From Thermoplasmata archaeon (GTDB taxonomy: Archaea > Thermoplasmatota > Thermoplasmata > Lutacidiplasmatales > UBA184), in NCBI GenBank assembly GCA_028864975.1, contig JAGWLG010000010.1:1-64000 (forward strand): 64,000 bases of DNA. Reading direction: 5' to 3'. The notes beneath the pieces are model-generated. The model saw nothing but the letters and a program-made list of their open reading frames with translations. It made no database searches and had not been told where the DNA came from. The first letter of the stretch is position 1. Each line of letters starts with the position of its first letter. Made by a program: the position numbers and the translations under genes. Shown here piece by piece: positions 12,291 to 22,118 of this stretch.

Positions 12291-14114
12291 TCACCGCGGC
12301 GCAGCGACAGCATGCCCCGCGGGGGCTCCCGAGGCGCCGTCCCCTGCAGAGCCGCCCAGCCCGCGCTCGAGCTCCGCGAGCTCCCTCGAGGTCATCCGGT
12401 GGAGGAGGGCCAGGTCGGCCGCCTCCATCACGTCCGCGCTCTCGACCGTAGAGCGTCCCTCGAACGCGGCATTCGTCCGGGCGAGCTGCTCCATCATGAC
12501 GTCCAGGTTCGCGCTCTGGTGGTCGAGGAGCGTCATGCGCGCGATAAGGGTCATGACCTTCGTCGGAAGGTTGACGCCGTGCGTCCGGTCGCGCGCCTTG
12601 AGGAGGTTCGTCCGCGTCTCCTCCTCCTCGCGCGCATACTGCTGGCGGAAGGGCTCGGGGTTCTTGCGGAACTCCAGGTTGCGTCGGATGACCTCCAGGC
12701 GCTCCTCCACCGTGGACGGGCTCGAGACCTCCACGTGGAGCGTCATGCCCGAGAGCAGGTGGTAGGCCTCCTCGTCCTCGTCCTTGAGCCCGCCCAGGAC
12801 CGCGGGGGGAAGCGCGTGGGAGACGTGCGGGGCGGACCCCTGCTTCACGGGGGGCCGGGGGAGCGAGAGCGCGGCGGTCTGCAGGACCGTGTCGACCAGG
12901 TAGGCCCCGGTTTCCTTCCCGAAGTGGATGCGCCCGGTCAGGTAGCGCTCCTCGTCGCTCCACTTGCGGTAGTTCTCGGCGCCGAGCTTGAGCCGCTCGT
13001 GGACGGGCTCCAGCACCTGGGCGAAGGAGAGGATCAAGTTGAACTTCGCGTTCCCCTCGGGCCCCCAGAGGACCACGCCCCCTAGGGAGGGGTCGATCGC
13101 GCTTAGGAGCAGGGCTCTCTTCGCCTTGTCCTGACCCACGACCGCGGAGAAGGGGAACATCGGGGCCTTGAGCCGTCGGGAGAGCTGGGCGTAGCGTCCG
13201 CGCCGGAAGATGCGGGTCTGGAAGTCCGCCTCGATCTTCGCGCGCTCGCGCTCGAGGTCCGTATGGAACTTCTCCTTGAGGCGGGACTCCTCCTCCGAGA
13301 CCCGCGCCTTCGATTCCTGCGACAGGCGGGCTTCGATGGCCTCGGACTTCCGCACCATCTCGGTCTCGAGCCGTGAGCGCTCGATGGTGAGTTGCTGGGC
13401 GCCCTTCTTCTCGGCCTCGGCCTCGAGCTCGCTCGCGCGCTTGCGGCGCTCCTCCTCGAGCTTCGAGTGTCCCTCCGCCTCCCGTTGGCGGAGCTCGACC
13501 TCCAGGTTCCTGCGAAGTTCCGCCTCGCGGGCCTTCATCCGCTCGTCGACCTGTTCGCGGAGCTCCTCCTCCCGCTTGCGACCCTTGGCCTGGTAGGTCT
13601 CCTCCAGGTCCCTGCGGTCGCGGGCGAGCTCGCGGTCGCTGGCGCGCCGGGCCTCGTCCTCGAAGGCCTTCTTGTCCAGCGCGAGCTGGGACTTGAGGTC
13701 CTGTTCCCGCTTCTCGTAGCCCTGGAGCAGCTGGACCTTGAGCGCCTCGTTCCGCTGGTCGAGCTCGTCGCGGAACTTCTGGGTGAGCTCGGTCTCCTGC
13801 CGGGTCAGAGCCTCCTGGACCTTCCGCTCGGCGTCCGCGGCGGCATCGGCCTTCGCCTCGGCAAGGGCGCGTTCGAGCTCCCGCTGCGCCTTTTCCTCGT
13901 TCTGGCCCCAGCGTCGCTCCCACTCCAGGTCGCGGTCCCGCTGGGCCTTTCCGACAGATTCCGCGATGCGACGCTCGTTCGCCGTGGCGAGCTCCCTGAG
14001 CTCGAGAACCTTCGCATCCTCGAGCTCCTTGCGGGCCTTGGCGACCCCATCGGCGATCTTCTTCTGGATGAACGCCAGTTCCGCGTCCAGCTCGTTCGTG
14101 CTCTCGGGGGCCAC
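12291..14114 (-). CDS. Long coiled-coil protein fused to a degenerate ChlI-like AAA+ domain
   Basis: aa 1-~305 are an E/K/R/A-rich coiled coil. From aa 319: FPFSAVVGQDKAKRALLLSAIDPSLGGVVLWG (ChlI signature), but with Walker A GPEGNAKF, Walker B position IHFGKE and the arginine-finger DR replaced by SG. Confidence 0.85.
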   Translation of the reverse strand: MAPESTNELDAELAFIQKKIADGVAKARKELEDAKVLELRELATANERRIAESVGKAQRDRDLEWERRWGQNEEKAQRELERALAEAKADAAADAERKVQEALTRQETELTQKFRDELDQRNEALKVQLLQGYEKREQDLKSQLALDKKAFEDEARRASDRELARDRRDLEETYQAKGRKREEELREQVDERMKAREAELRRNLEVELRQREAEGHSKLEEERRKRASELEAEAEKKGAQQLTIERSRLETEMVRKSEAIEARLSQESKARVSEEESRLKEKFHTDLERERAKIEADFQTRIFRRGRYAQLSRRLKAPMFPFSAVVGQDKAKRALLLSAIDPSLGGVVLWGPEGNAKFNLILSFAQVLEPVHERLKLGAENYRKWSDEERYLTGRIHFGKETGAYLVDTVLQTAALSLPRPPVKQGSAPHVSHALPPAVLGGLKDEDEEAYHLLSGMTLHVEVSSPSTVEERLEVIRRNLEFRKNPEPFRQQYAREEEETRTNLLKARDRTHGVNLPTKVMTLIARMTLLDHQSANLDVMMEQLARTNAAFEGRSTVESADVMEAADLALLHRMTSRELAELERGLGGSAGDGASGAPAGHAVAAPR

Positions 14115-14137: not shown

Positions 14138-16063
14138 TCAGAGGTTCTCCTCGATGACGCGCCGCAGACGCTCGGGACTGAACTCGGCCTGTTCAAAGGG
14201 TTTGCGCCGCATCCTGTGAGGCAGCGCCATCTCGGCGATCCGCCCCACGTCATCGGCGCTGACCTGGGTACGCCCCTCGAGGGCGCAGAGCGAGCGCGCT
14301 CCGCGCTCGATCATGATGTCGGCACGATGTCCGTCCACCCCGAAGGCCGTGGTGACCTTCGGGATCGCGGCGAAGAGCTTCTGGGAGATCTCGACCTTCG
14401 GCAGGATCTCCCGGCTCCGCTTGATCTTCTCCCGGATCTGTCCCTGAAGTGGCTCGAAACGGGCGCGGAAGTCCGCGGAGTCGCGTTCGAAGTCCTGCCG
14501 ACGTCGGACGATCTCCATCCGCGTGTTGAGGTCCTCGATGCCGACGATCGAGACCTGCAACGCGATTCGGTCGAGCAGCTGCGGCCGCAGGCTGCCCTCC
14601 TCGGGGTTCATCGTGCCGACCATGACGAACCTAGCGGGATAGGACACCGAGATCCCCTCGCGCTCGACGGTGACCCGCCCCATGGCGGCCGCGTCCAGGA
14701 GCACGTCCACGACGTAGTCGTCCAGGAGGTTGATCTCGTCGACGTAGAGGATGCCGCGGTTCGCCTCCGCGAGCACCCCGTGCTCGAAGGCGACCTCCCC
14801 CTCCGTGAGCATCCGGCTCACGTCCAACGTCCCCACGACCCGGTCCTCCGTCGCGTTCAACGGCAGGTCGACGACCTTGAGCGGACGCACCCGGGTGGGG
14901 ATCGCGTCGGGGGTGCGGCCCTGGTACTTCTCTGTGCACTCCCAGCACCATTCCTGGGGGCGGGCGGGGTCGCAGGAGAAGCGGCACCCTTCGACGATCT
15001 TGATCTCGGGGGTGATCTCGGTCAACCCCCGGACCGTGACGGACTTCGCGGTCCCCTTCTGTCCGCTGATGAGCACCCCTCCCACGAGGGGGTCGACGAT
15101 GTTGCAGAGCAGCGCGAGCTTCATCTTCTCCTGCCCGAGGACCCCGGAGAACGGGAAGAGCGCCGTCGCCTTCCGCCCCTTCGCTCCCATCAGCTTCGAG
15201 CGGGCTTCCTCGCGCTTCGCCTTCTTCGACTCCTCCGCGTGGGCGGCCGCGACCGCCTGCGCCTGGATCGTCGTCGGGGAGACCTCGGGCTGCTTGAGAA
15301 TGGCCTCCACCTGCACCTTGTTCTCGATCCGGCTCTCGACCTCGACCTCGGTCACCCCCGTTCCTCCCTCGAGGGTCGCCCGGAGCTGCCCCACCTGGAC
15401 CCCCGCCATCCCGCCACCCCCGGAGCCCGCCTGGGCGAGGGCTTCGCTGCGCTTCTTTGCCCCCTCGATGAGGAGGGCCCCGCAGTTCGTGCAGGAGATC
15501 GCGTCCGGCTCGACCGGCGCGTCGCACGAGGCGCAGCGCATCTCGCCGACCTCGAGCTCGGCCCCACACGTCGGGCAGGAGGAGGCGTGGAACGGGACAG
15601 GAGAGGAGCAGGTGGGGCAGAGCGCCTCGGGGTTCGTGAGCGGCTGTTTGCAATGCGGACAGAAGAGCGCCTCGGCCGGCACGAGGGCGCTACAATGCGC
15701 GCACTTGCAGCTCTCTGGGTCGAAGGCCGCCCCGCATCTTGCGCACCGGTCCGCGTAGACCGAGGTGACGGCCCCGCAGGCCGGGCAGAGCGACTCGTCC
15801 CCGACGAAGCGCTCCTCGCCCAGGACCTCCCCGACCAGGGCCTCGGTGTCGGGGTGGGCCCCTGGCTCTTCGACCGTGGGCAGCTCCGGGGTCGCCTCCT
15901 CCAGGAGCCCCTCGAGCTGCGCCGCGAGCTCGTTCACGGACTCATCGGGGGCGAACTCCTCGCCGTTCCCCTCCCCCTTGCCGTTGGTCGGAGGAGTGCC
16001 CTCCCCGCCCTCCGGTTCTGGGTCGGTGGGACGCGGCTCTTCAGGAGGAGGGACCGGGACCAT
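14138..16063 (-). CDS. ChlI/BchI-type AAA+ ATPase with four N-terminal zinc ribbons
   Basis: Acidic N-terminus, eight CxxC motifs, then FPFSGVLGQEKMKLAL..DPLVGGVLISGQKGTAKS, ANRGILYVDEINLLDD, TMNPEEGSLRPQLLDR and GHRADI. ATG 16063 has a GAGGTG Shine-Dalgarno 6 nt upstream. Confidence 0.92.
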   Translation of the reverse strand: MVPVPPPEEPRPTDPEPEGGEGTPPTNGKGEGNGEEFAPDESVNELAAQLEGLLEEATPELPTVEEPGAHPDTEALVGEVLGEERFVGDESLCPACGAVTSVYADRCARCGAAFDPESCKCAHCSALVPAEALFCPHCKQPLTNPEALCPTCSSPVPFHASSCPTCGAELEVGEMRCASCDAPVEPDAISCTNCGALLIEGAKKRSEALAQAGSGGGGMAGVQVGQLRATLEGGTGVTEVEVESRIENKVQVEAILKQPEVSPTTIQAQAVAAAHAEESKKAKREEARSKLMGAKGRKATALFPFSGVLGQEKMKLALLCNIVDPLVGGVLISGQKGTAKSVTVRGLTEITPEIKIVEGCRFSCDPARPQEWCWECTEKYQGRTPDAIPTRVRPLKVVDLPLNATEDRVVGTLDVSRMLTEGEVAFEHGVLAEANRGILYVDEINLLDDYVVDVLLDAAAMGRVTVEREGISVSYPARFVMVGTMNPEEGSLRPQLLDRIALQVSIVGIEDLNTRMEIVRRRQDFERDSADFRARFEPLQGQIREKIKRSREILPKVEISQKLFAAIPKVTTAFGVDGHRADIMIERGARSLCALEGRTQVSADDVGRIAEMALPHRMRRKPFEQAEFSPERLRRVIEENL

Positions 16064-16197
16064 GAAGCGCACCTCTTGAAGGCGCATGCGAGTGTATGTA
16101 CCTTGTCAGACCCCCGCCCGACCCCAACGGGTGCCCGAGGAGTGGGCTGGGCGGGGGCGAACTTGGTTCCTGGACCCTCCCGGGCTCCTCGCGAACG

Positions 16198-16203
16198 TTT
16201 AAG
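16198..16203. promoter_or_regulatory. TATA-like element in the divergent intergenic region
   Basis: TTTAAG in otherwise GC-rich sequence between the divergent chlI-like and cdvA-like genes. Confidence 0.5.
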
Positions 16204-16258
16204 TCCCCAGGCACGGTCTTATGACCTGCGGGACCCGCAAGGGGGGATCCCGCAGGTC

Positions 16259-17560
16259 ATGGGGGTCCTCGAGGGTATCAAAGGCTCGTTCTGGCCCTCC
16301 GGCAAGAGGGGCCTCGGTTCTCCGCTTTTCCTCGAGGAGGATGGTCCGATCCTCGGCGTCATCGACGACATCTTCCTCGACAAGAAGTCCGGACAGCCGG
16401 TCGCGTACCGCGTGCTGGCGAGCGGACAGTACCTCGAGGTCCCAGCCGAGGCCGTCACGGAGACCCCCGGGGGTTACATCTACCGCTCCCCCTGGTTCGC
16501 GGAGGCGGATGCGCTCGTCCGGAAGCTCGAGAGCCAGGAGCTCCTCATGCCCGAGCTCCTCTTCTCCTCCGTCGCGACCTCCGACGCCGACCGACGGCTC
16601 CTGGAGAGCGCGGTCGAGCGCTCTCCCGCGCTCAAGAAGATGGTCTCCCAGGCGACCGAGCTCTACCAGGGACTGTCCCCGCGCATCGACGCGCTCGAGA
16701 AGGAGAAGTACAAGGTCGTGGGAGAGGTCGCGGACCTCGCGGAGGGGCTCATGACGGGCCGCCTTCCCAAGGACGTCCATCGGGAGCGGTTCGTCGCGCT
16801 CAAGCGTCGTCTCCAGGTCTTGGATGCTTCCCTCCACCGAGGGGAGTCGCTCCGCCGTCGGCTGGAATCCATCCCGTTCGTCACGCTCGCCAAGAAGCCC
16901 GAGGTCGCCGGGGCCGGTCTCCCCTCGCTCCCTGCTGGAGCGATGGCGGGGGGCCGCCCCTCCGCCTTGAGCGCCGCCATGCTCCCCGGGTCCCCTGCGG
17001 GGGTCCGCCCCCCTCCCGGGGCCGGGGAGGAGTGGAAGCGTATCCGCAAGTTCCGCGTCCTGAAGGCGGAGGCCACGCTCCGCCAGAGAGAGGAGTCGCT
17101 CCACCGGATGGAGCAGGAGCTCCAGAAGACGGGGGGGGTCTCCCCCGAGCTCGTCCAGTCGCTCTCCCAGAACTACGACAAGCTCGCCAAGGCGATCGCC
17201 CAGGGCGGCCCCGACGGGCTCAAGAAGGAGATCGAGCGGATCGTCCAGGACAACGCCCAGAAGACGGCCAAGACGGAGACGAAGGCCCTCGGCTCGGCGC
17301 TCGGTTCCCCTGCCGCCTCGAGCCTCGGCAGCGCTCCCCCGGGGAAGACCTGTCCGCTCTGTGCCGAGCCGCTCACGGGGCGCGAGACCACCTGCCCCGG
17401 CTGCCAGGCCGACCTCAAGACCTTGGAAGAGGCGAAGGAGGGGTCGACGGGGCCCAACGGGGCCCAGAAGTTCTTCCGTGGCGGCGGAGCGACTAAGATG
17501 GGGGTCGTGCTGCTCATGGCGGCCGGCGCGACGTTCCTCTCCTGGTTCGTCCTACGTTAG
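16259..17560 (+). CDS. CdvA-like protein (PRC-barrel + coiled coil) with zinc ribbon and C-terminal TM helix
   Basis: 3' part of ORF 14216..17560, from ATG 16259. PRC-barrel-like LGVIDDIFLDKKSGQPVAYRV, then SPWFAEA and RIDALEKE..GRLPKDVHRE..LKRR as recalled for CdvA. CPLC..CPGC and a hydrophobic C-terminus follow. Confidence 0.7.
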   Translation: MGVLEGIKGSFWPSGKRGLGSPLFLEEDGPILGVIDDIFLDKKSGQPVAYRVLASGQYLEVPAEAVTETPGGYIYRSPWFAEADALVRKLESQELLMPELLFSSVATSDADRRLLESAVERSPALKKMVSQATELYQGLSPRIDALEKEKYKVVGEVADLAEGLMTGRLPKDVHRERFVALKRRLQVLDASLHRGESLRRRLESIPFVTLAKKPEVAGAGLPSLPAGAMAGGRPSALSAAMLPGSPAGVRPPPGAGEEWKRIRKFRVLKAEATLRQREESLHRMEQELQKTGGVSPELVQSLSQNYDKLAKAIAQGGPDGLKKEIERIVQDNAQKTAKTETKALGSALGSPAASSLGSAPPGKTCPLCAEPLTGRETTCPGCQADLKTLEEAKEGSTGPNGAQKFFRGGGATKMGVVLLMAAGATFLSWFVLR

Positions 17561-19623
17561 GTCGGTCCGCGCGCAGCGGATGCGGGGTCCTTTCCCCCGG
17601 CTCCGGCCGGTCTGTCCGCTTTTCCGTTACGGGGAGGTTTCCACTCGCGGGCCGGGGGACGTCGGTGGCCCGTGCCCGGCTCCGTGTTCTCCTCGGGACG
17701 CTCACGCTGCTCGTCCTCGTTGGTCCCCTTGGGCGGTCGCGGTGCCTTCGGCTTCAGGCCCCCGGACCCCCTCTCTCGGCGGGCCCGTTCGAGACGGTGG
17801 ACCCGGGTGCGGAGCAGGATGATTGCCCCGATGACGGCCCCGAGGCCGCCCACCTCGATCAGGAAGACCGGGATGAGCTGAGGGGGCACGGGGGGCACGG
17901 TCATGGTGAGCCGGATCTGCTGGTTGTCCGAGGTCACCTGCACCCGGGAGGCGGGGGCGCTGTACCCCGTGCCCTGGGCGACCGCCGAGACCTCGTAGGC
18001 CCCCACGAAGGTGTCGAGCCCCTCGAGGGTGACGACGTCCGTGGGGAGGAAGTGCCCGACATCCCCCTGCGCGTTCACCCCTAGGACCACGCAGGCGACG
18101 TTCGGGACCGTGCTGCACAACGAGACCTGGACCGAGGAGGCCGGGACCGAGGGTGGGGAGATGGGTAGCACGCTCACCAGCACGTAGCGGAAGACATGCA
18201 CGGCGACCTCGGCGGAGACCGTACTGATCCCGGCGATGGAGGCGGAAGCACCCCCCGTTGAGACGACCGTCGGGGTCCCCCAGTTGTAGACGCTCACGTT
18301 GGCGCTCCCCAGGACCGAGATCGCGGGCGCGCTCGCGTTCGTCAGGTTCACCCAGGGATTGTAGAAGACCATCGGGAACCCGAAGTGGGAGCTTCCGTTG
18401 GCCGTGAAGTTCCCCGTGGCCGCCGAGGTCACGGACGCGGCGCCGGGTCCGAAGCTCGAGTTCTCGACAGCCACGTTGACCGAGGAGGCGACCGCGAGGA
18501 CCGAAACCTGCGCATGGGCGATCGAGAGCTGGTGCAAGGGTCGAGCGATGGTCAGGTCGTTCACGACGACCTGGTCCGACGCGCTCCCCGTGGAACCCAG
18601 GCTCACATCGGTGGTGGCGTTGAGCGCCACGCCCGAGAGGACCGCGTCGTCCACCCCGAAGGAGGTCACGCTTTGCGGCAGGGAGAGGTTGACCACATGG
18701 ACCGGCACCGACGCCGAGACCCCTTGCAGGAGGACCTCGCCCACGCTCCCGCTCACGTTCAGCCAGTGGACATCGGAGCCCGAGTCGCTGAGCTCGGAGA
18801 GGGACCCCTCGAAGGACATCCGCGTGATCCGCGCGCCCCCCGGGGTCGCGCTGGGTCCGCCCGCGCTCCCGTCCAGCACCCCCCCGTTCGCCACCTGGAC
18901 GTTCCCGCCTCCGGCGGCCAGAAGGCTCCCGTTGGTGTAGAAGAACCCCCCCGCGACGGAGAGCCGGGAGAACGGGCCGAGGATGAGCGTGGAGGTGGGC
19001 GAGAGGGTCAGGTTCCCTCCGGTGTCGATCGTGAGGCTCCCGCTCACGAAGAGCCGAAGCGAGAGGCCCTTCTCCACCGAGAGGAAGGAGCTCGGTCCCA
19101 CGGTGAGGCCGCCCGCGACGTTCAGGAAGAGCGTGCCGTTGCCCGAGGCGGAAGCGTTGACCACGATGCCGTCCGCCCCTGAGACCACGAGGTTGCCGCC
19201 GGCGGCGATGTCCAGGTCCTCGTTGAGGTAGCAAGGAGAAGGGGTGGCGAACCCGGGAGGGGAGGCGGTGTTGAACGTGCTGGTCAAGGGGGAGATCAGA
19301 CCCTGGGCGCTGACGCAGTTCGGGAGCGGCCCCTGGGGCGTCGCCCCGATTTCGGGGCGTGCGCTCGGGAGCGAGGCAGGGGCGGGGTCGGAGGTAGTCG
19401 CGTGCGTCACGGTTCCCCTCTCGGAGGGGGCCGCCGTCAGAGATGTCGGCGCTCCCCCCCGTGCTCCGAGGTCTCGCGGGGCCGTGCTCGCGCCGAGAGC
19501 GTGGAGCGGGCCCTCCAAGCTGCCGAGGCTCAGGAGGAGCAGAACGAAGAGCGCGAGGCAGCTCGCCGCGAAGAGGTCCCCCCTCGCTCGTGCGGGATCG
19601 GAAGGCTCGCGGACGTCGCGCAT
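17557..19623 (-). CDS. Secreted or membrane-anchored beta-rich surface protein
   Basis: N-terminal hydrophobic segment, S/T/G/V/N-rich beta-helix-like body with many N-x-S/T sequons, C-terminal TM helix and charged tail. Its stop codon overlaps the convergent gene. Confidence 0.75.
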   Translation of the reverse strand: MRDVREPSDPARARGDLFAASCLALFVLLLLSLGSLEGPLHALGASTAPRDLGARGGAPTSLTAAPSERGTVTHATTSDPAPASLPSARPEIGATPQGPLPNCVSAQGLISPLTSTFNTASPPGFATPSPCYLNEDLDIAAGGNLVVSGADGIVVNASASGNGTLFLNVAGGLTVGPSSFLSVEKGLSLRLFVSGSLTIDTGGNLTLSPTSTLILGPFSRLSVAGGFFYTNGSLLAAGGGNVQVANGGVLDGSAGGPSATPGGARITRMSFEGSLSELSDSGSDVHWLNVSGSVGEVLLQGVSASVPVHVVNLSLPQSVTSFGVDDAVLSGVALNATTDVSLGSTGSASDQVVVNDLTIARPLHQLSIAHAQVSVLAVASSVNVAVENSSFGPGAASVTSAATGNFTANGSSHFGFPMVFYNPWVNLTNASAPAISVLGSANVSVYNWGTPTVVSTGGASASIAGISTVSAEVAVHVFRYVLVSVLPISPPSVPASSVQVSLCSTVPNVACVVLGVNAQGDVGHFLPTDVVTLEGLDTFVGAYEVSAVAQGTGYSAPASRVQVTSDNQQIRLTMTVPPVPPQLIPVFLIEVGGLGAVIGAIILLRTRVHRLERARRERGSGGLKPKAPRPPKGTNEDEQRERPEENTEPGTGHRRPPAREWKPPRNGKADRPAGAGGKDPASAARGPT

Positions 19624-19756: not shown

Positions 19757-21148
19757 ATGCCGTTCCAGGCTCTGCGGGGGTTCCGGGACTACCTGCCCGC
19801 GGACGCGGCCGCCCGTCGCGCGATCTTCGACACCGTCCGGTCGGTCACCCGCCGCTACGGCTTTGACGAGGTGGAGACCCCCAGCGTCGAGTCGCTCGAG
19901 CTGTTCAAGGTGAAGAGCGGAGAGGGGATCGTCGACGAGACCTTCTCGTTCAAGGACAAGGGCGGCCGGGAGGTCACCCTCGTCCCCGAGATCACCCCGT
20001 CCGTGGCGCGGATCTACGTCGACCGGGCGAAGATCGAACCCCTTCCCGTCAAGTGGTTCTCGGTGCAGAGGCTCTGGCGGTACGAGGAGCCTCAGTCCGG
20101 AAGGACCCGGGAGTTCTCCCAGGTCAACCTGGACATCCTGGGGGTCCCTGGTGTCGAGGGTGAGCTGGAGGTCCTTGCGGTCACGCGGCAGGTCATGGAG
20201 GAGATCGGGCTCGGCGGTCGCTATGTCTTCCGCACGAGCGACCGAAGGCTCGTGGAGGGGCTGGGAAGGGCGCTCGGGGCGAAGGAGACGGACCCTTTCT
20301 TCCGTGCGCTCGATCGGAGGGAGAAGCTCCCCTCCTCGGAGTTCCAGGGAGAGCTCGCGAAGGCCGGGCTCGGAGAGGACGCCCGAGGCCGTCTCACGAA
20401 GCTCCTGACGGACTGCGGCCCCGGCTTGTCCCCGAAGGAGGCCCCACGGGTGCTCGAGGAGGTCCGCGCGTGGCCTGGTCTGGGCGAGGAGGGCGTCCGG
20501 GGGGTCGAAGCGCTCCTCGAGCTCTTCCGTCGGGCCCAGGGCACCGAGCTCGAAGAGGTCCTGGTGTTCTACCCCTCCCTGGTCCGAGGACTGGCCTACT
20601 ACACGTCCACCGTGTTCGAGGCGTGGGCCCGGACCGGGGAGGTCCGCGCCTTGTTCGGCGGGGGGCGCTACGACAAGCTGGTCGAGCTCTTCGGGGGCCC
20701 GAGCGTCCCCGCCTGCGGGCTGGCGATCGGGGACCAGACCCTCGAGATCCTCATGCGCGAGGCGAAGATCTGGCCCGAGCGCCCGCCCGGTCTCGACGTG
20801 TACGTCGCCACGGTCGACCCCTCCCTCGCGCCGCAAGCAAGGACGTGGGCGGAGCGACTCCGGAAGGAAGGGTTCCTGACCGACTACGACCTGCTCGCCC
20901 GACCCCTGTCGCGCCAGATGAAGGAAGGAGGGAGGCGCGGAGCTCGGTCGATCGTGCTCCTGGGTCCCCGAGAGCTCGCGAAGGGCGAGGTCACGCTCAG
21001 AAATATGCGGACCGGTCAACAGGTCGCCGTCGCTTCTGGGGAGGTTGTGCCGTTACTGAAGGCCGATGCGGATGTCGGGTCACCCTCGGCCGCTCCCGCT
21101 CGATCTCCCGCTCGGCCGTCTCCTCCGGGGACCTCGAGCGTACCGTAG
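19757..21148 (+). CDS. hisS: Histidyl-tRNA synthetase
   Basis: LRGFRDYLP, FKDKGGREVTLVPEITPSVAR, WRYEEPQSGRTREFSQ, LVRGLAYYT, GGGRYDKL and a C-terminal anticodon-binding domain. Confidence 0.96.
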   Translation: MPFQALRGFRDYLPADAAARRAIFDTVRSVTRRYGFDEVETPSVESLELFKVKSGEGIVDETFSFKDKGGREVTLVPEITPSVARIYVDRAKIEPLPVKWFSVQRLWRYEEPQSGRTREFSQVNLDILGVPGVEGELEVLAVTRQVMEEIGLGGRYVFRTSDRRLVEGLGRALGAKETDPFFRALDRREKLPSSEFQGELAKAGLGEDARGRLTKLLTDCGPGLSPKEAPRVLEEVRAWPGLGEEGVRGVEALLELFRRAQGTELEEVLVFYPSLVRGLAYYTSTVFEAWARTGEVRALFGGGRYDKLVELFGGPSVPACGLAIGDQTLEILMREAKIWPERPPGLDVYVATVDPSLAPQARTWAERLRKEGFLTDYDLLARPLSRQMKEGGRRGARSIVLLGPRELAKGEVTLRNMRTGQQVAVASGEVVPLLKADADVGSPSAAPARSPARPSPPGTSSVP

Positions 21149-21971
21149 CGCCCGGTGCCGCCGCGTCCCTTCGGGGTGGGCGCGAGGGGACGTGGGACTC
21201 GGTCCAGGGGCGGGGGGCCAGCCCTTCGAGCGTCTCGCCATCGTAGAGGAGGATCCCGGGGGGGCTCTCGGCTCCTCGGGTGTGGCCGTGCCAGTAGACG
21301 ACCGCCCCCTCCCCGAACATGTGCGTGTAGGGTTCGAGCTGCTTGCGCAGGTTGCGTCTGAGCTCCACATCGTCCCCGAAGTTCGCCTTCGATTCGATCC
21401 AGCAGACCTTCTGTCCGTCCAGGACGATGGGATGATCGAGCAGCGCGTCGGGGGTCTTCGCGAACTTCCCTCTCAGGTCCTTTTCGGTCCGGTAGGTCAA
21501 CCCATGCTTCTTCAGCCAGTTCGCGAGGCGGGTCTCGCCCTTGATCCCCCGGGCCCGCTGGATCTCTCCGCCCTTGGGCGAGTAGACCCAGTCCGCCTCG
21601 AGTACCTCTATGACCTCGCGACGCAGGCGGGCGTCGGGGATGGCCTCCGGTCGCCGGAAGGCGTCCCAAAAGGTCCGTCGCGGGGTCTGGCGGGCCTTCT
21701 CGATGAGCTGGGCCATCAGCACCGGGGGGAAGCGGTACTGCCGCGCGAGGTCGAGGTAGCTCCGCCCCCGGTCCCACTCCTTGAGGAGCCGAGGGGCATC
21801 CTTCTGGACCACGTAGAACCGCTTGGTCGCGTCGCGGGTGACCCGGTGGGTGTAGATGACCATGAGAAGGTCCGGGTCGATCCCTTGCTCCCGGGCGATC
21901 CTGTCGACGTCCTCGTACTCCCGGAGCTGCCTCGAGAGCGATTGGTACTCGTCGCGGGAGAGCATTGTCAT
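20997..21971 (-). CDS. C15orf41/CDIN1-like (TPD-motif) PD-(D/E)xK nuclease-family protein
   Basis: KTPDALL..WIESKANFGD..KQLEPYTHMFGEGAVVYW with an N-terminal helical FPPVLMA region. A low-complexity tail overlaps hisS. Confidence 0.85.
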   Translation of the reverse strand: MTMLSRDEYQSLSRQLREYEDVDRIAREQGIDPDLLMVIYTHRVTRDATKRFYVVQKDAPRLLKEWDRGRSYLDLARQYRFPPVLMAQLIEKARQTPRRTFWDAFRRPEAIPDARLRREVIEVLEADWVYSPKGGEIQRARGIKGETRLANWLKKHGLTYRTEKDLRGKFAKTPDALLDHPIVLDGQKVCWIESKANFGDDVELRRNLRKQLEPYTHMFGEGAVVYWHGHTRGAESPPGILLYDGETLEGLAPRPWTESHVPSRPPRRDAAAPGATVRSRSPEETAEREIERERPRVTRHPHRPSVTAQPPQKRRRPVDRSAYF

Positions 21972-22118
21972 GGTGGGGGAAGGACCGTTCGGCCGCTCCG
22001 AAGACGGACCGCGCTTAACGGTAAGGGTCCGTCCACCCCCCGGGTAGCCTCCAGCCATGGTTCCCACCGGGCGAGAACCCGTGTCTGGCGAAGCAGACTA
22101 GTGTTGACATGCGTCAGC

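Follow-up and report, generated by a model that had tools for sequence, protein, structure and literature searches.

Gene and domain layout at the locus

Within a 64,000-nucleotide window of a Thermoplasmata archaeon genome (positions 1 to 64,000 of contig JAGWLG010000010.1, GenBank assembly GCA_028864975.1), we characterized the gene at 16259-17560 on the plus strand, whose 433-residue product (P0001) joins a remote homologue of the archaeal protein CdvA to a predicted C-terminal membrane anchor. The gene stands beside two minus-strand genes encoding AAA+ proteins, here called B and A, and it is this combination of a CdvA-type module, a membrane anchor and a conserved AAA+ context that the following analysis addresses.

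The frame runs from an ATG at 16259 to a stop codon ending at 17560 and translates into 433 amino acids with no internal stops, as had been stated in a preliminary description made from the sequence alone. A Shine-Dalgarno-like GGGGGGATCC (10-19 nt upstream) and a TTTAAG box (~56 nt upstream) can be read ahead of the ATG. A longer upstream frame opening at 14216 was set aside as a high-GC artefact (~69% G+C), and the ATG at 16259 was retained as the start, because close homologues share the same MGV... beginning. The stretches quoted in the preliminary description are all found in the translation (SPWFAEADALVRKLE at residues 77-91, LSPRIDALEKE at 139-149, VADL at 157-160, GRLPKDVHRE at 167-176 and LKRR at 181-184). 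A word-indexed search of 5.8 billion proteins retrieved 16 relatives, 15 of them at 48-82% identity (14 of these spanning the full length); in that collection none bears a name beyond ‘hypothetical’, and one comes from a ‘Candidatus Thermoplasmatota archaeon’. Names given to relatives in public records are ‘PRC-barrel domain-containing’, ‘zinc ribbon domain-containing’ or hypothetical. Eight orthologous loci were retrieved from species-representative genomes, metagenome-assembled genomes titled ‘Thermoplasmata archaeon’, which agrees with the probable Thermoplasmata origin suggested earlier, and the DNA was also detected in mine-drainage and soil metagenomes (two studies; two may be the source sample), with no RNA data set listed among them. 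The 433-residue CdvA-like open reading frame is confirmed as a real, conserved gene.

The layout of P0001 comprises, in order, a PRC barrel, a three-helix coiled coil, a disordered linker, a second helical hairpin, a four-cysteine zinc ribbon and a C-terminal transmembrane helix (all coordinates below are on the plus strand). Two AlphaFold2 models were used, one of the full length based on the family alignment and one of the N-terminal module alone (predicted local distance difference test, pLDDT, 83.8; predicted template modelling score 0.67), and helices were predicted at residues 78-96, 109-166 (with a kink at 122), 171-204, 255-291, 296-347 and 401-432. The PRC-barrel domain (residues 22-76; 16322-16486), delimited by the modelled strands, Pfam PRC and matches in the structural search VIA, forms a six-stranded barrel at residues 24-75 in both models, and its residues G29, G33 and G72 are invariant in the family alignment. 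It is followed by a PxWxxEA junction and the three-helix coiled coil (residues 77-212; 16487-16894), placed by VIA and by HMMER alignment to CdvA, in which W79, P98, L160 and E162 are invariant across both the close and the distant clades of the family described below. The Pro/Ala/Gly-rich linker (residues 213-254; 16895-17020) is variable in length and unconserved, and is predicted to be disordered, with pLDDT below 50 at residues 215-255.

The second helical hairpin (residues 255-347; 17021-17299) opens with the basic motif EEWKRIxKFRVLK, in which R261, K264, R266 and L268 never vary and W259 almost never does, and no specific fold match was found for it. The zinc ribbon (residues 363-387; 17345-17419) has the form CPLC...CPGC at residues 365-382; Pfam DZR/DZR_2 matches 15 of the 16 family members, and the CxxC pairs are kept in 15 of the 16 sequences of A1, being absent from the outlier P0017. 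The predicted transmembrane helix (residues 411-432; 17489-17554), seen in the Kyte-Doolittle profile and as the AlphaFold2 helix at 401-432, is preceded by a conserved KFxKGGGATK motif and separated from the stop by a single residue, and each of the 16 sequences of A1 ends in a helix of this kind. These additions to the CdvA-like part (second coil, zinc ribbon and C-terminal helix), listed in the preliminary description as features that canonical CdvA lacks, are real and conserved. Because the sole hydrophobic segment of P0001 (residues 413-433, Kyte-Doolittle 2.07) sits at the extreme C-terminus, we infer a tail-anchored protein, the remainder of which would be cytoplasmic if it follows the general behaviour of this class.

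Relationship to CdvA

The papers searched describe CdvA as peculiar to the Cdv system and as the marker protein of the TACK clade, report it absent from Asgard archaea, and record further related families only in Thermoproteales and Bathyarchaeia (PMC11188069, PMC8970359, PMC12818579). The preliminary description, which had assigned CdvA to TACK and Asgard archaea alike, was thus right as to TACK and wrong as to Asgard (PMC8970359, PMC11188069). The PRC plus coiled-coil module of CdvA is its polymerising unit and builds double-stranded antiparallel filaments through hydrophobic coiled-coil contacts; these filaments are without a membrane-binding region, and a tether of unidentified kind has been speculated (PMC12818579).

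The similarity of P0001 to CdvA is carried by structural searches and sequence profiles. In Foldseek against the PDB, the nine best matches were all chains of CdvA from S. islandicus (SiCdvA; 9s9g, 9s9i), at E 3e-6 to 4e-5 over 185-197 columns, and the PRC-only proteins that followed stood at E ~1e-2. VIA aligned the full-length model to CdvA with Z 12.0 and 11.5 over 180-184 of 195 residues, the next match being an unrelated helical protein at Z 8.6, and an exhaustive VIA search independent of Foldseek (domain model against 48,161 chains) ranked 9s9g_A first (Z 13.0, 183 of 194 residues) ahead of a next chain at Z 9.8, the aligned SiCdvA span in VIA being residues 6-197. No solved structure other than SiCdvA spans the entire module at residues 1-205. 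At the sequence level, a profile of 21 module sequences from two clades (A4), run against PDB sequences, found CdvA at E 3.4e-7 over 154 residues (CdvA 21-174) in both domains, with the next match at 0.046, and a broader profile of 57 sequences (A2) found CdvA at E 7.3e-5. The particular parallels that the preliminary description had drawn with CdvA were reproduced by HMMER, which aligns the PxWxAEA junction to SiCdvA P68-A74 and GRLPKDVH residue for residue to S158-Y165 (SEIPENAY). Since the structural searches, which we regard as decisive, and the sequence profiles agree, residues 1-212 are best read as genuinely, if remotely, homologous to the CdvA core (13-15% identity), a conclusion supported at the level of predicted fold and profile, and the CdvA-like interpretation proposed earlier is upheld.

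The PRC assignment made from the sequence pattern was likewise borne out. Pfam PRC matches 14 of the 16 family members (best E 5.4e-4); P0001 on its own reaches 13.5 bits with PF05239 (E 0.076), below the 21.2-bit cut-off, wider relatives pass that cut-off with up to 29.5 bits, and VIA matches the barrel to the PRC proteins 1pm3 (Z 8.6) and 3htr (Z 8.2). The nearest named clusters in ESM-Atlas are PF18822 CdvA families of Thermoproteota and Bathyarchaeota, a lead only. NCBIfam gave chance-level matches only on P0001, and single-sequence phmmer against the PDB returned a designed helical repeat and zinc-finger pieces of TFIIH p44, which we judged to be noise from composition and the zinc ribbon.

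Compared with CdvA of Sulfolobales (arCOG04054; PF18822 plus PRC; 9s9g, 9s9h and 9s9i, PMC12818579), P0001 keeps the order and spacing of a barrel packed against a three-helix coiled coil, and the two share the PxW..EA junction and an (I/L)P kink motif, (S/G)x(I/L)Pxxx(Y/H). P0001 departs from it in adding a linker, a second hairpin and a zinc ribbon, in having a transmembrane anchor of its own, whereas CdvA has no membrane-binding surface, and in its gene neighbours, which encode BchI/BchD-like AAA+ proteins in place of cdvB and cdvC. Our verdict is that the family is an architectural and contextual variant of the CdvA kind, outside the canonical Cdv system. In the literature searched there is no report of a tail-anchored CdvA-like variant, and a survey of archaeal PRC-barrel proteins (10.1101/2023.03.28.534520) does not mention a Thermoplasmata family of PRC plus coiled coil. 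The closest described counterparts are arCOG03733 and arCOG03734 of Thermoproteales (PMC11188069), which like P0001 combine a divergent CdvA-like module with a zinc ribbon and a long coiled coil, and whose hosts are without the canonical Cdv set and were proposed to use them as parts of an unknown division system (PMC11188069); compared by description only, they differ from P0001 in an N-terminal position of the zinc ribbon, in having no transmembrane anchor described and in belonging to a TACK lineage.

The helix 2/3 hairpin of P0001 (residues 120-188; window ~16658-16864) superposes, next after CdvA, on the core hairpins of ESCRT-I, the ‘steadiness box’ of Vps23/Vps37/Vps28, with Z 9.3-9.8 and root-mean-square deviations of 1.1-2.9 Å (2f66, 2p22 and 2caz score 9.7-9.8, and 6vme, a few rows further down, 9.3). 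A similarity of CdvA to the steadiness box was proposed earlier (PMC11188069). The match covers only 60-69 residues, lies within the range of unrelated helical hairpins and is taken here as a lead, not as evidence of relationship.

Linked AAA+ genes and the wider family

The most informative context of the CdvA-like gene (C where gene order is given), its linkage to two BchI/BchD-like AAA+ genes, had been left out of the preliminary description, and what it says about function can still be put forward only as a proposal. Gene B (14138-16087, minus strand) encodes 649 residues with an acidic leader, multiple zinc ribbons (three DZR matches) and a complete BchI/ChlI AAA+ ATPase, matched by TIGR02030 BchI-ChlI at E 3.4e-118 over residues 311-647. 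Gene A (12291-14114, minus strand) encodes 607 residues with ~300 residues of charged coiled coil and a degenerate BchI/BchD-like AAA+ domain (partial BchI/BchD and AAA_lid_2 matches). All B orthologues keep Walker A (GQKGT[AG]KS), Walker B ([IV]LYVDE) and an LLDR arginine finger; in all A orthologues Walker A reads G..GN[AG]KF, Walker B is absent and LLDR is replaced. Judged from these motifs, B would be catalytically competent and A a catalytically dead, BchD-like paralogue.

An active BchI-type ATPase paired with a degenerate-site paralogue recalls the BchI-BchD (ChlI-ChlD) pair of Mg-chelatase. A and B are unlike that enzyme in having no von Willebrand factor A (vWA) domain with its metal-ion-dependent adhesion site (MIDAS), in the lack of a CobN/ChlH (CobN-Mg_chel) match in the genome, and in the N-terminal zinc-ribbon array and 300-residue coiled coil, which are foreign to chelatases. 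A chelatase role is unlikely because CobN/ChlH is missing from the genome and vWA from both proteins, and the classical Mg/Co-chelatase reading of the pair was rejected on these grounds. Neither the CdvA-like protein nor A or B was matched to a defence system by PADLOC.

By tblastn, the AAA+ pair is linked to C in ten of ten close-clade loci, B being adjacent to C in every one; eight of these loci derive from species-representative genomes and two (L009, L011) from a sample of 401 genomes of the phylum. Two arrangements occur. In the window and in L023, L028 and L029 the order is A< B< >C, with a divergent intergenic region between B and C that measures 171 bp in the window (16088-16258), while L024-L027 and L030 have a co-directional C> B> A with short gaps, and in L009 and L011 the order C> B> is seen as far as the retrieved sequence extends. 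The A/B/C association has therefore survived an inversion, and no neighbour other than A and B is conserved across both arrangements. Among the 401 sampled genomes, full-length A orthologues were found only in G000, G067 and G206, exactly the three with a close CdvA-like orthologue. In the sub-clade with the order C> B> A, a frame of ~207 residues (73-78% identity) directly follows A (L024, 14877-15497 on the plus strand; also L025, L026, L027 and L030). It may represent a fourth member of the unit. The window, L023 and L029 showed no equivalent beside the module.

The CdvA-like module extends well beyond these loci. An exhaustive phmmer search of 1.84 billion representatives gave 57 proteins at E up to 1e-3, matching only residues ~19-211 of P0001, and the weakest of these matches, checked as possible canonical CdvA, included none. 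The C-terminal parts of the relatives vary, from a tail anchor, accompanied in some by a zinc ribbon, to PAS plus HisKA or nothing, and many relatives carry an N-terminal extension of ~100-180 residues. A match occurs in 38 of the 401 sampled genomes; beyond G000, G067 and G206, all but G073 belong to other classes, with E ~1e-30, and G073 is the exception in matching the C-terminal half only. One relative, P0049 (736 residues, from a metagenome), carries the CdvA-like module at residues 22-274 and, after it, a bacterial DnaA ATPase domain at residues 371-530 (E 2.8e-69), a fusion that occurs on a single contig and may be real or a gene-calling artefact.

In the distant clade, the CdvA-like proteins have no transmembrane helix of their own and no BchI-like neighbour. 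Their genes lie directly downstream of a gene for a polytopic membrane protein of 530-590 residues in 16 of 16 loci (L031-L046), the two genes overlapping by 4 bp in three of them, and the polytopic partner resembles S26 signal peptidases at its N-terminus and carries a conserved CD(L/I) at its C-terminus. A gene for a giant coiled-coil/PAS protein (2,100-2,600 residues where whole) follows downstream in 11 of the 16 loci. Examples of this operon-like unit are L035 (6205-7977 and 7974-9191) and L036 (6015-7727, 7749-8771 and 8865-15842). Some CdvA-like members of this clade have PAS plus HisKA with no HATPase domain. One query with the membrane partner (c1) found no homologue in the genome analysed here. 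With an anchor supplied either in cis or by an operon partner, the module is thus recurrently coupled to the membrane, which is the main support for the membrane-proximal role that we infer for the family overall.

Proposed role and alternatives

The genome (3.6 Mb, 89.6% complete) carries three tubulin-family genes, two of which are strong FtsZ matches (C59, C15), together with SepF and two small PRC-barrel open reading frames (119 and 93 residues). The third tubulin-family gene (G000:C119:23964-24443, locus L008) matches Tubulin/FtsZ far more weakly (E 3.4e-22) and may be CetZ-like. Against this background we propose, with a confidence that goes slightly past the halfway mark, that P0001 is a tail-anchored CdvA-type scaffold or adaptor that works with the AAA+ pair A/B. 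The CdvA-type core, tied by the linker, second hairpin and zinc ribbon to the tail-anchor helix, would be held on the cytoplasmic face of the membrane, where the membrane-fixed protein may self-associate through its CdvA-type module and the A and B ATPases may assemble it, remodel it or dock on it. By analogy, this would follow the logic of a scaffold served by an AAA+ remodeller, here without ESCRT-III/Vps4 and in a cell with an FtsZ/SepF/CdpB-type division set. Of the earlier suggestion of a divergent division or membrane-remodelling protein, the divergent CdvA-like part stands, and the function is carried forward as a proposal.

Several results weigh against this proposal. The preliminary description had pointed to the Pfam CdvA coiled-coil family, and here the outcome went the other way: PF18822 is absent from P0001 (E up to 10) and from the genome (E up to 1), and its matches stay below the 30-bit cut-off in every relative, appearing at all in 2 of the 16 and 4 of the 57 (best 0.00024; three of these sub-threshold matches scored 15-18 bits). 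Identity to SiCdvA is only 13-15%, and the root-mean-square deviation is 6-7 Å. The genome has no Snf7 (ESCRT-III) match at E up to 1 and no Vps4_C match above the cut-off, the sub-cut-off ones lying inside open reading frames of 774 and 1263 residues, and P0001 itself ends in a zinc ribbon and a transmembrane helix, not in the ESCRT-III-binding tail that CdvA has as E3B/BWI in Crenarchaeota or MIM2 in Thaumarchaeota. The ATPase linkage is limited to the close clade, the distant relatives having other neighbours, and a search among longer forms of 759-2165 residues turned up none in which the module is fused to a BchI-type ATPase, which is weak evidence. Further, the longitudinal filament contact of SiCdvA is formed by six hydrophobic residues (A90, L94, I100, I149, M153 and I156) whose exchange for Asp abolishes polymerisation (PMC12818579), and opposite them HMMER places E99, S103, D109, A158, E162 and M165, of which two of six are hydrophobic; this mapping comes from a remote alignment that is unreliable in the alpha1-alpha2 loop. 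Because most contact positions are non-hydrophobic and E162 is invariant in both clades, the CdvA filament interface as such is probably not conserved, and any polymerisation would probably use another longitudinal contact. A two-copy complex prediction (residues 18-213, 70-row alignment) scored 0.00 in a run without controls and is used neither for nor against self-association.

The 6-7 Å deviation and the sub-threshold PF18822 matches would also be expected if P0001 were no true CdvA homologue at all, barrel and long helices having arisen independently and the matches reflecting a barrel plus generic coiled-coil geometry; long helices do bring many unrelated proteins to middling Z scores, and matches at Z 8-10 were abundant. 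We nevertheless regard this as very improbable, given one collinear profile alignment over both domains at E 3.4e-7 with no other PDB protein below 0.04, the shared PxW..EA junction and helix 3 (I/L)P motif, and the position of CdvA, in two independent searches, 3 Z units above every other chain and alone in covering the whole module. Somewhat easier to entertain, though still quite unlikely, is that P0001 serves as a CdpB-type accessory of the FtsZ divisome, its barrel binding SepF or PRC proteins and its helix adding a membrane tether for the Z ring, so that the likeness to CdvA would reflect only the common descent of archaeal division PRC proteins. CdpB1-3 are indeed PRC proteins of FtsZ-based division recruited via SepF (10.1101/2023.03.28.534520), their barrels (8qzo, 8onw) are among the Foldseek matches of P0001, and the FtsZ/SepF system in which they act exists in this host, which carries SepF along with a pair of FtsZ genes and two small PRC proteins; a weak Pfam ZapG-like match (E 0.032) also falls in the second hairpin. 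However, CdpB proteins are small single-domain barrels and P0001 is a multidomain protein of 433 residues, which places it outside the CdpB type, and the two small PRC genes of the genome fit CdpB better than it does. Moreover, no examined locus links the CdvA-like gene to ftsZ, sepF or cdpB-like genes, the family is patchy within the phylum (the 38 sampled genomes noted above), unlike core divisome parts, and the similarity to CdvA runs through the whole helical domain, beyond the barrel.

The AAA+ genes lend themselves to a different reading, in which P0001 is the membrane receptor or substrate adaptor of a BchI/BchD-type AAA+ machine unrelated to division, for instance in membrane-protein assembly or quality control, or in cofactor or metal insertion, with the CdvA-like fold as an interaction platform. 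This would sit well with the invariable A-B-C linkage in the close clade, its survival of the inversion and the strict co-occurrence, with a B protein that retains all motifs of a BchI-type ATPase next to a BchD-like dead paralogue, and with a genome that already has a full FtsZ1/FtsZ2/SepF/small-PRC set. Against it stand the lack of CobN/ChlH in the genome and the absence from A and B of a vWA/MIDAS domain, which BchD or MoxR partners typically have; in addition, the distant clade keeps the module without such an ATPase, and the module therefore has a function of its own. We hold this alternative to be possible and, on the whole, rather doubtful.

The proposal of a tail-anchored CdvA-type scaffold working with A and B can be carried further. 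A/B/C could be a previously unrecognised, ESCRT-independent system for membrane remodelling or associated with division, in which a two-tier BchI/BchD-like AAA+ complex would build up or take apart a tail-anchored CdvA-type polymer on the inner face of the membrane, as a functional counterpart of CdvA-CdvB-Vps4 made of other components. This extension is speculative and, in our estimate, unlikely; were it to hold, the PRC plus coiled-coil module, viewed together with the anchor-less clade, would be an ancient archaeal membrane-scaffold unit predating the TACK Cdv system, one that needs a tether and has it supplied in cis here. More generally, a PRC plus coiled-coil module in FtsZ-using Thermoplasmatota would push the origin of the module beyond TACK and suggests that it is more widely spread and more versatile than thought. 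The built-in tail anchor and the co-encoded polytopic partner are natural examples that make the question of CdvA tethering testable, the BchI/BchD-like pair points to an unexpected class of AAA+ partner, and P0001 would offer PRC-barrel biology in FtsZ archaea a structurally tractable new member.

On its other side, the CdvA-like gene converges with a minus-strand gene at 17557-19623, the 3' ends overlapping by 4 bp. Its product is a 688-residue Ser/Thr/Val/Ala-rich protein with an N-terminal hydrophobic segment and a C-terminal transmembrane helix with a basic tail; Pfam gives no match for it, and its conservation, at ~49%, is confined to the two nearest relatives (L023, L029). Farther along, the histidyl-tRNA synthetase gene (19757-21148) is overlapped at its 3' end by an opposite-strand gene at 20997-22067 (minus strand), whose 356-residue product contains a TPD-motif domain (PF14811, E 5e-38).

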